Positions 55,450 to 57,729 are shown, counted from the first letter of the stretch. The stretch is 64,000 bases of DNA from Escherichia coli (GCF_024298765.1 NZ_CP101210.1), one strand, 5' to 3'. A program made the numbers and translations. The notes: a model not told the origin generated them from the sequence alone.

Positions 55450-57729
55450 CATGTGCTGAGTAGAGTAAGAGGCAGGGCGTAGTCGGACTATTTCCCTGCC
55501 TCTCCTCCCCGAACCGGACGTGCACCTTTCAGCGCATCCGGCTCTCCATTTAAATGCTGGCGAACGCCATTGCCACTTCTGTAAAGCGTGATGTATACGT
55601 GTTTCTGGTCTCCGTCCTCAGATAGGGATTACCTTCGGGTAGCCGCCAGCGGAACAGCTTCTTGCCTTGCCCCACCAACCGGTACAGTATTTCGCCGCTG
55701 AGCTTGCCGTGATTGGTTTTACCAAATAAAACCCACGTTTTGCTCTGACCCGGTTTCGGTGATTTACACCACCACCTCATCAGGGAAGCGATACCTGTAC
55801 GGTATTTGCGGGCCAGCCAGTGAGCCAGCTTCCAGAACACGACACGGTCGATATAACTGAAGACTTTGGCCTTAAAATCAACGAACTGATAGAACATGGC
55901 CCAGCCTTTCAGTTTTCGGTTGAGTTGTTCAGCCATATCGACTTTGCTTTCACTGTAGTTGCCTGATAACAGTGCTGTCAGCGATGCGGCGAAGTTTCTG
56001 GCTTTCTCCTGCGGGATCGTTGAGACCACTCGCATCTCGCCATAACGACTGCGTTTGCGAATGATCCTGTGCCCCAGAAAGATAAAGCCGTCATTAACAT
56101 GGGTGATTTTAGTCTTATCCATGTTCAGCCTGAGTTTCAGACTGCCTTCGAGCACACCCCGACACTCCTCCCTGATGGCTTCCGCCTGTGCTTTGGTGCC
56201 TTTGACGATGAGGACAAAATCATCGGCATAGCGGCAGTACGCCACCGCGGGTTTCCACTGCCAGTTTTCTCTGACCGCCGTACTTCGGCCCCGTTGGATA
56301 CTGTTATTCCAGTACCACCGATCTTTTCTGGCTTTCCCGCTCAGGTAGCGCTCATGCAGGTATTGATCGAACTCATTCAGCATGATGTTCGATAATAGCG
56401 GCGATATAACACCGCCCTGTGGCACACCTTCACTGGCCGCCCGAAAGAGACCGACATCGATATGTCCCGCCTTGATGGTTTTCCACAGCAGAGTCATGAA
56501 ACGTGCGTCACTGATCCTGCGGCGTACAGCCTTCATCAGCAGTCGATGATGTACGGTGTCGAAGTAACTGGACAGGTCGCCTTCAATCACCCAGCGTCCC
56601 CGGGTTTCACCGCAGTCTGTGAGCTGTAATTTCACCGTGCGGATCGCGTGGTGGACACTGCGCTCAGGCCGGAAGCCATATGAGAGCGTATGAAAATCAC
56701 TCTCCCATATCGGCTCCATCGCCATCAGCATGGCCCGCTGAACAATACGATCCCGCAACGCGGGGATACCCAGTGGTCGCAGTTTGCCGTTGCTTTTAGG
56801 GATGTAAACCCGTCTGGCGGGCAAGGGCTGGTAGTGGCCTGAGAGTAATTCATCCCTGAGGATTTGCAGCTCAACAGCCAGTCTGGCCTGTAGCATTGTT
56901 TTGTTCACGCCATCAACGCCGGGGGTATGGGCCCCCTTTGATGAAAGCGTGATCCGCGCCGCTTCAGCCAGCCATTCTGGTTGTGTTATTAGACGCAGCA
57001 GCCGTTGAATCCGTAGGGACGGATCGGTGGCTGCCCATGTGGCAAGCTTGCGTTGCATTTCGCTGATTATCAAAGGTCTTCACCTCGTTAGGTCAGTTAA
57101 TTCACGTCGCAAACACATTCAAACTGCTTCCCTTCGCCATGTAATGGGCTTTCCCCATCGCGGACTACTACGGAAGCTCCGCCAGCCAGCGCGTCATCGG
57201 AGCCATGCCCCCTTAACATCCGTCGCTGACCTTCCCCGGTTTACCTGCCTGGACTCAGGCATACTGAGGAGGCTGCCCGTCGCACTCTTTATCCTTGCTT
57301 GCCGCAAGTTGGCAGAAGTCAGCAACGCAAGCGTGATAGACGCTGCTGCCCCGGTGTTTCGCATACATGTCAAAACACCTTCGACCGGCAGTGCTTACGT
57401 ATCACTACCAGTTCCTCCTGCACGGCCTGTCAGATCACGTAGGCCGTGGTGACGTTTTCAACCCACAGAGGCGGATTAACGGGTTCATGTTCTTCAGCCT
57501 TTCAGTACTTAACCTTGAGGATCATCTCGGCTTAGTGATCTCGCCTCAATCCCCGTTGTCAGCGGGTTACATCACCCTGCGGGCATGCCGCAGGTCACTG
57601 CCGCTCAGGTTCTCCACCGTCACACCCGGTGGGATTGTTGGGTTTCTCATCGTGAGTTACCGGTTCAATATTCCAGACAGACTCGCGGTTCATTTAAGCA
57701 TCCATGCCCGCCCTGAACTCCGGGCACAC
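55450..57729 (-). mobile_element. Group II intron (~2.28 kb) with intron-encoded reverse transcriptase
   Basis: 5' end GTGTG at 57729; RT ORF in domain IV; domain V GAGCCGGATGCGCTGAAAGGTGCACGTCCGGTTC at 55510-55543 (minus strand) 7 nt after the ORF stop; domain VI-like stem gaggcaggg...ccctgcctc; flanking exons join to give an in-frame IS3 orfB. Confidence 0.85.
55550..57073 (-). CDS. Group II intron reverse transcriptase/maturase
   Basis: 507 aa with RT motifs including YADD (AYCRYADDFVLIV) and a C-terminal maturase/X region. Confidence 0.9.
   Translation of the reverse strand: MIISEMQRKLATWAATDPSLRIQRLLRLITQPEWLAEAARITLSSKGAHTPGVDGVNKTMLQARLAVELQILRDELLSGHYQPLPARRVYIPKSNGKLRPLGIPALRDRIVQRAMLMAMEPIWESDFHTLSYGFRPERSVHHAIRTVKLQLTDCGETRGRWVIEGDLSSYFDTVHHRLLMKAVRRRISDARFMTLLWKTIKAGHIDVGLFRAASEGVPQGGVISPLLSNIMLNEFDQYLHERYLSGKARKDRWYWNNSIQRGRSTAVRENWQWKPAVAYCRYADDFVLIVKGTKAQAEAIREECRGVLEGSLKLRLNMDKTKITHVNDGFIFLGHRIIRKRSRYGEMRVVSTIPQEKARNFAASLTALLSGNYSESKVDMAEQLNRKLKGWAMFYQFVDFKAKVFSYIDRVVFWKLAHWLARKYRTGIASLMRWWCKSPKPGQSKTWVLFGKTNHGKLSGEILYRLVGQGKKLFRWRLPEGNPYLRTETRNTYTSRFTEVAMAFASI

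Follow-up and report, generated by a model that had tools for sequence, protein, structure and literature searches.

The window, by which we mean the whole 64,000-nt stretch of Escherichia coli DNA analysed here, contains a recent and probably still active copy of the group II intron E.c.I4 that appears to have retrohomed into its usual IS3-family target and to sit there as a selfish passenger in a dead insertion sequence (IS), not as a regulator of it, a reading that we hold with a probability of about 0.93. The element is a genuine group II intron with an ORF of its own, and its agreement with the features previously described for it lies far beyond chance. Judged by its identity to catalogued sequences, it is E.c.I4, and its arrangement is a homing site that was already known; catalogue coordinates, class, host genes, and the spread of the junction all match, which makes it a textbook copy of a known element (Table 1).

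Table 1. Coordinates of the intron, its encoded protein, and the host IS, counted from the first nucleotide of the window.
Feature	Position	Strand	Description
Composite element	54945..58523	-	IS1203/IS629-type IS3-family IS (1,309 nt) with the nested intron; TGAACCGCCCCGG... to ...CCGGGGCGGTTCA
orfA	58128..58469	-	113 aa (canonical 108 aa); NCBIfam NF033516 matches the N-terminal part
ALIL pseudoknot	58073..58188	-	IS frameshift stimulator; Rfam RF01497, 115.7 bits
Likely U_UUU slip site	58182-58179	-	directly 5' of stem-loop 1
A5 run	58147..58151	-	A6 in canonical IS1203; 1 nt deleted downstream of the -1 frameshift site, ahead of orfB
orfB exon 1	57730..58147	-	ends ...WVADFTY plus G of the next codon; holds the first catalytic Asp of DDE
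orfB exon 2	54987..55459	-	starts TC AGC ACA TGG (VSTW...); holds the remaining D and E of DDE
Group II intron E.c.I4	55460..57729	-	bacterial class A; 2,270 nt, 5' GTGTG to 3' CTAC
Candidate EBS1 hairpin	57385..57411	-	domain I, intron nt 319-345; 9-bp stem; complementarity scan and manual inspection
Candidate EBS1 loop	57402-57394	-	AUACGUAAG
Intron-encoded protein	55550..57073	-	reverse transcriptase (RT) as well as maturase (X), no D/En; 507 aa from TTG at 57073, 502 aa from ATG at 57058
Domain V	55511..55544	-	34 nt; AGC triad, 2-nt bulge, GAAA tetraloop (Rfam and fold)
Domain VI and intron 3' end	55460..55508	-	bulged branch-point A at 55466, 7 nt from the 3' splice site

An earlier note on this DNA had described a group II intron nested in the orfB of an IS3-family element, and this was borne out, with the intron on the minus strand and in the sense orientation relative to the transposase gene. 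The span it gave (55450-57729) holds at the 5' end, while the 3' end was placed 10 nt off and the length of 2.28 kb was correspondingly overstated. The 5' end at 57729 reads GTGTGCCCGG, and sequence inspection located the previously reported GTGTG start at 57729-57725; the 3' end at 55460 has the terminal sequence ...CUUACUCUAC, or ...CCUCUUACUCUAC over a fuller stretch. Both the GUGYG 5' end and the AY 3' end of mobile group II introns are thus present. Exon 1 ends in ...CAG CTG TGG GTG GCT GAT TTT ACT TAC G before the intron, and the ligated-exon junction predicted in silico across 57730/55459 is TTTACTTACG-TCAGCACATGG. The split between ADFTY and VSTW, with the in-frame junction tac-gtc-agc-aca-tgg (tac-g/tc), had therefore been read correctly, and it fits a 3' end at 55460. 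The joined exons read ...WVADFTY-VSTWQGF... in a single frame and encode a 296-aa OrfB, which matches the IS3 transposase model NF033516 in one stretch with 316 bits. Splicing does restore the frame, as had been stated, but this is nothing special to the insertion, since the excision of any precise intron recreates the original sequence automatically. When positions 55460-57729 were removed from the window and the remainder was compared to the intron-less locus of strain EM10-18-28, a single mismatch was found in 17,731 nt; the excised window corresponds to the empty orthologous site, and the intron boundaries are therefore exact.

At the RNA level, the Rfam model for group II domains V and VI (RF00029) matched positions 55546..55460 with 64.9 bits (gathering score 40, E-value 1.7e-10), and folding the last 93 nt gave a joint z of -5.9 for the two domains. 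Domain V is canonical, as previously noted, although its helix starts 5 nt past the RT stop codon rather than 7 nt. The expected folding into group II domains was recovered for domains V and VI; the Rfam D1-D4 families for domains I-IV gave no match between 54900 and 58560 at a permissive E-value. The minimum free energy fold of the 5' 656 nt was moderately more stable than shuffled sequences (z = -3.3), but its topology was uninterpretable and the EBS1 hairpin was not clean in it, and the fold was for this reason left out of the EBS assignments. A D1D4-4 match elsewhere in the window does not belong to E.c.I4 but to the relic of another, unrelated group II intron at 62.5 kb (62533-63099, plus strand), which adjoins an IS1203-like terminal repeat remnant. 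The window also carries the C0719 sRNA at 9551-9772.

The intron-encoded protein (IEP) is placed in domain IV. Its ORF is full length and contains an intact YADD motif in the context 'CRYADDFVLIV', and the reverse transcriptase/maturase reported earlier was confirmed in the sequence and by Pfam (RVT_1, 2.2e-34; GIIM, 1.3e-10) and NCBIfam (341 bits for TIGR04416, 'group II intron reverse transcriptase/maturase', whose curated cut-off is 300). RVT_1 and GIIM were the only domains found in the Pfam search, with no HNH (D/En) domain in the IEP. The ATG at 57058 is the start annotated for the 100%-identical copy WP_001189111.1, a protein carried in identical form by many genomes.

The host IS is bounded by imperfect terminal inverted repeats of about 25 bp of the TG...CA type, located at 58523 and 54945. 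No target-site duplication of the expected 3-4 bp was found, the flanks ...GTATT and AACAG... showing no direct repeat. Once spliced in silico, the 1,309-nt IS aligned as a single piece and at 100% identity with IS1203 copies that lack the intron; many complete E. coli genomes contain such copies, annotated as 'IS3-like element IS1203 family transposase'. The canonical IS1203 of 1,310 nt, annotated with a programmed frameshift, served as the reference for the A-run, whose context is CTCTGG-AAAAA(A)-TGATG. In ALIL elements, shifting occurs 5' of stem-loop 1 (PMC5009743), the position of the likely slip site here, and a -1 slip at U_UUU in the canonical IS1203 yields 404 aa, the length of the CDS joined by PGAP. 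With one A missing from the run, orfA loses its usual stop, which explains its 113 aa instead of 108. In the spliced A5 copy, the -1 frameshift product meets a UGA and ends at 108 aa, as opposed to 404 aa, with orfB in the +1 frame instead of the -1 frame from which IS3 elements produce OrfAB by programmed -1 frameshifting. This IS is nevertheless a defective member of the IS1203/IS629 type and not of another family. The A5 run was present in all same-locus copies examined, and the intron-less orthologues in EM10-18-28 and SMS-3-5 are labelled by PGAP as 'frameshifted' pseudogenes. Taken from these alignments, the host IS is one that an independent 1-nt deletion had already broken when the intron invaded it; because of this deletion, the OrfAB transposase would not be makeable even from spliced RNA, and transposition would not be restorable in cis.

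This lesion bears directly on the proposal, made in the earlier note, that transposition of the IS depends on splicing, in other words, that the intron is a switch and that the transposase and IS3-type transposition at the locus require its excision. The co-orientation of the intron with orfB and the continuous 296-aa OrfB produced by precise excision are what such a switch would need, and in strain Santai the identical intron lies in an IS629-like copy of 1,310 nt that, once spliced, would yield a complete 404-aa OrfAB, so that dependence would be plausible for copies of that kind. For the window copy, however, the proposal fails on the A5 run, the 108-aa product that remains after splicing, and the intron-less orthologues that are already pseudogenes. 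E.c.I4 also occurs antisense to an IS3-family transposase gene in strain HSP60, an insertion from which no splicing out of that transposase mRNA can take place. In addition, the survey literature presents bacterial introns as retroelements whose exons are poorly ligated when the host is an IS, and the 2012 survey (PMC3522654) cites work on the poor exon ligation of an IS-borne bacterial intron. We therefore regard a splicing-dependent switch at this locus as very improbable. The intron could still be spliced from IS transcripts, given its co-orientation with the transposase gene, but the death of the host IS beforehand makes it a selfish passenger and not a regulator of IS transposition.

A further idea concerns the unspliced state. 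The exon-1 frame extends 21 codons into the intron (ORF 58237..57665), and an OrfAB cut just past the first catalytic Asp might, in intron-bearing IS629/IS1203 copies, inhibit intact copies in trans; predicted from the sequence, such a truncated protein would keep the DNA-binding and multimerisation parts and lose the catalytic core. If true, the spread of E.c.I4 through about a third of the complete E. coli genomes would damp IS3-family transposition genome-wide. We consider this a long shot, and since the A5 lesion blocks even the OrfAB-intron fusion in the window copy, the idea is limited to Santai-like copies.

The chromosomal locus supports the reading of a recent retrohoming event into an IS that was already in place. 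With a 20-kb query, the same locus was found to be intron-bearing in Z226-7, FY10, MSB1_6C, and strain 53, and intron-less in EM10-18-28, CM196105, and others, in which 89% of the query was covered in two pieces. The gene neighbourhood is alike whether or not the intron is present: a type I restriction-modification system, rhuM, mobI, a degenerate IS3-family gene, a gene encoding a hypothetical protein, and the IS are followed beyond the latter by ythA, nanY, nanX, and a phosphoethanolamine-transferase pseudogene. In Z226-7, for which the fetched locus was 5 kb longer, an integrase gene and a tRNA-Leu gene come next, and from this gene order we take the locus to be the leuX genomic island. On these alignments, the locus is a base-exact presence/absence polymorphism, as expected from retrohoming into a pre-existing IS, and such a polymorphism at a single locus points to a recent insertion. 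The Z226-7 intron differs from the window intron at 5 sites, compared to 4 differing sites in about 17.6 kb of flanking sequence, a pattern that hints at independent homing or gene conversion. Within the window, no other copy of the intron or of the IS was found, nor was a second, unoccupied homing site.

The comparison with catalogued bacterial group II introns that had been proposed earlier led directly to E.c.I4. The window intron is 99.9% identical over all 2,270 nt to positions 489783-492052 (minus strand) of E. coli IAI39 (NC_011750), exactly the interval listed as E.c.I4-10 (NC_011750, 489783-492052, -) in supplementary Table S3 of Leclercq and Cordaux 2012 (PMC3522654). In the IAI39 record, 15 places were matched by the intron in a megablast search, and the same paper gives 15 E.c.I4 copies for this strain, all E.c.I4 copies being situated at specific positions of IS3-like transposases (IS629, IS911, ISEc16, and ISEc31; PMC3522654). 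E.c.I4 is assigned to bacterial class A, with an ORF that has no recognisable D/En (Toro and Martinez-Abarca 2013, PMC3552965), in line with the missing HNH match in the window copy, and a 2008 paper tabulates the host genes 'Escherichia coli - IS629' and 'Shigella flexneri - IS629-like ORF'. When the intron was searched by megablast against 5,426 complete E. coli genomes, 2,668 were matched, 1,873 of them (about a third of the total) with at least 80% query coverage. The intron is multi-copy: a single record may hold as many as 20 places, and in 2,720 records the identity of the best place reached 99% or more. The exon 1-intron junction of the window copy, used as a 120-nt query, was recovered from no fewer than 1,438 of the 5,426 genomes. 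The window intron is 100% identical to the Santai copy and differs by 2-3 nt from three directly checked copies in other IS types and genomes; this near-identity of many copies argues for recent mobility. Other strains have an E.c.I4 that is interrupted in turn by IS421.

That the element is instead a decayed, immobile relic merely resembling a group II intron is scarcely credible: domains I-IV lack an Rfam match and many bacterial introns are fragments, including the one at 62533-63099, yet the ORF is full length with its YADD motif intact and a protein identical to WP_001189111.1 of many genomes, domains V and VI are canonical, an identical copy exists in an unrelated strain, the copy numbers and the 2,720 records at or above 99% identity are those just given, and the same-locus polymorphism points to recent insertion.

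Target recognition was approached by comparing the flanks of intron copies that were identical or nearly so, inserted in the IS1203/IS629 type (window and Santai), in the ISEc31 type (plasmid pRM11911 and IAI39), in three other IS3-family genes of Tenebrionibacter intestinalis, and, antisense, in HSP60. One of the ISEc31-type sites was named ISEc31 by PGAP, and another had the same flanks; a contig search with the intron 5' end yielded only 4 loci, with 3' flanks that were short or absent. All sense insertions are located after nucleotide 1 of the codon following D-x-T-Y, the motif of the first catalytic Asp. The six target types have A-12, A-7, C-6, T-4, A-3, Y-2, and R-1 in common, and T+1 was found in the three target types with a 3' flank to compare. 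In the candidate EBS1 hairpin, the loop sequence CGUAAG (intron nt 331-336) pairs with the IBS1 sequence CUUACG (-6 to -1) in 6 of 6 Watson-Crick pairs, and the A beside CGUAAG can pair with the U at +1. On this complementarity, the hairpin is a credible EBS1, possibly with a delta or EBS3-like contact. Several natural targets carry A at -1 and a variable -5, which gives mismatches with the candidate EBS1, and no compensatory EBS1 changes were found among the copies in different IS hosts, the intron sequence being constant. A T323C variant converts a U.G pair of the candidate stem to C-G, and Z226-7 has a C.A mismatch there, so that the stem receives no support from covariation. For EBS2, the complementarity search returned AGAUCA at 189 and UGAAA at 226 and 270, all weak and ambiguous, and none was chosen; no EBS3 was assigned either.

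Combining these observations with established group II intron biology, from which the steps are drawn, the following route of retrohoming may be proposed. The target would be the codons of the first catalytic Asp motif (D-x-T-Y) in an IS1203/IS629-type copy fixed in the leuX island. The excised intron RNA and its own protein, as a ribonucleoprotein (RNP), would recognise this target by pairing between the EBS1 loop and the final 6 nt of the 5' exon, to which protein contacts would add. The RNP would then reverse-splice into the sense DNA strand, and the intron would be copied into DNA. Because the IEP has no endonuclease, the cDNA would most likely be primed by the nascent lagging strand at a replication fork. 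At 4.49 Mb of a K-12-like genome, the minus strand is the counterpart of the window's plus strand, and oriC of K-12 lies near 3.92 Mb. From these two positions, we infer that the sense strand of the intron is the lagging-strand template on the clockwise replichore, which, for this single insertion, is consistent with lagging-strand priming. Our literature search found no published experimental splicing or mobility data for E.c.I4.

In terms of novelty, the window copy adds little, since publications and catalogues already cover E.c.I4, its IS3-family host range, and its dynamics in E. coli populations, and current annotation pipelines already label ltrA and the split transposase. Its value lies in annotation: ltrA and the two pseudogene fragments named "IS3 family transposase" are one nested element whose exact boundaries are resolved to the base, in a host IS copy that is independently dead. 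The presence/absence polymorphism in the leuX island moreover constitutes a clean natural example of recent retrohoming.

E.c.I4 has its name from the Zimmerly database. When compared to E.c.I4 as catalogued (E.c.I4-10 of IAI39), the window copy has the same IEP (WP_001189111.1), the same type of homing site (IS629/IS1203, ISEc31), and likewise no En. It differs in two minor SNP states (T323 and A2141), which it has in common with Santai, and in the frameshift lesion of its host IS; otherwise there is no difference of substance. The ORF of S.f.I1, from an IS629-like ORF of Shigella flexneri, is 99% identical to that of E.c.I4 and also belongs to class A (PMC3552965). Here the host species differs, and the likeness is taken from the literature. 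RmInt1 of Sinorhizobium meliloti is En-less, like E.c.I4, and homes in the sense orientation into the transposase gene of an IS (ISRm2011-2); its splicing and exon ligation were reported to be inefficient, in work that the survey literature cites. Its host IS and bacterial group are others, and the likeness is an analogy of arrangement and mechanism only. RmInt1 belongs to class D and E.c.I4 to class A, and it is from RmInt1 that the lagging-strand priming model derives. Finally, Ll.LtrB of Lactococcus lactis, inserted in the relaxase gene ltrB, is also a mobile intron nested in the gene of another mobile element. This intron of class ML/IIA has an En domain, and the expression of its host gene is demonstrably dependent on splicing, whereas E.c.I4 has no En and its host gene in the window is already defective.

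The exact 32-nt 5′ end of the 2,270-nt group II intron E.c.I4 was also found in Tenebrionibacter intestinalis, on three contigs, and in Kluyvera georgiana, where it lies on a contig of 2,271 nt that is essentially the intron alone. In T. intestinalis, each of the three intron ends is situated 3′ of D-x-T-Y codons, in different IS3-family transposases. Judging by these matches, E.c.I4 therefore is circulating beyond Escherichia and Shigella. The features identified in this part of the analysis are collected in the table.

Features related to E.c.I4, its host element, and the remainder of the window (coordinates refer to the window unless an accession is given)
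Feature	Coordinates	Strand or orientation	Basis
sRNA C0719, E. coli	9551-9772	-	full-length RF00117 match, 294 bits; marks the window as Escherichia coli or Shigella chromosome
Second IS3-family transposase gene, degenerate (frameshifted, internal stops)	52456-54046	+	ORFs, annotation
orfB exon-1 frame running into the intron, unspliced state	57665-58237	-	
5′ fragment of a different group II intron, ~567 nt	62533-63099	+	starts GTGTGCC, Rfam match
Near-identical E.c.I4 copy, E. coli HSP60	NZ_CM137001.1 2087252-2092521, intron at 1501-3770 of locus	antisense to IS3-family transposase gene	

When the locus of E. coli Z226-7 was compared with window positions 44000-64000, the introns at the same site differed at 5 of 2,270 positions (55589, 56612, 56990, 57389, and 57407), while the flanks, spanning about 17.6 kb with the cluster after 63926 left out, showed only 4 differences. 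This imbalance suggests that different E.c.I4 variants homed independently into one site or that the intron copies underwent gene conversion. The copy in strain HSP60, with 3 differences, is inserted at ...ATGATACTTATG|TAGT, a site that resembles the IBS1 (the last six nucleotides of the 5′ exon) and +1 positions but does not match the coding context of D-x-T-Y. The insertion has the appearance of an ectopic retrotransposition, one that could not be removed by splicing from the transposase mRNA. E.c.I4 is itself interrupted in some strains (NZ_CP053284.1 and NZ_AP027829.1), where the intron matches in two pieces across approximately 3.6 kb and an IS4-like IS421 element lies within the intron, which lies within the IS3-family element, for a total of three nested levels.

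Without splicing, the frame of orfB exon 1 enters the intron for 21 codons, and in intact IS copies, unspliced transcripts would yield a transposase cut short directly past the first catalytic Asp. The ends of the IS1203-type host in the window (58523/58524 and 54944/54945) carry no target-site duplication, the flanks being ...CAGTATT and AACAGTC..., and its inverted repeat extends by chance to TTTGAACC.../...GGTTCAAA, which suggests rearrangement or recombination after insertion. The degenerate transposase gene located approximately 0.9 kb from the intron-bearing IS contained no match to the E.c.I4 homing site.

The fragment of the different group II intron has no similarity to E.c.I4 by blastn. 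It matches Rfam RF02003 (group-II-D1D4-4) at 62558-62697 with 67.2 bits and extends into the opening codons of an RT ORF (...LEPVQNLQKTLQEKAK). The fragment is truncated by TGAACCGCCCCGTGTTTCCTG (63100-63120), a 20/21 match to the IS1203 terminal repeat, followed by a phosphoethanolamine-transferase pseudogene. It is absent from the K-12 fragments listed in PMC3522654, and 1,529 complete E. coli genomes carry it, K-12-like ones among them.
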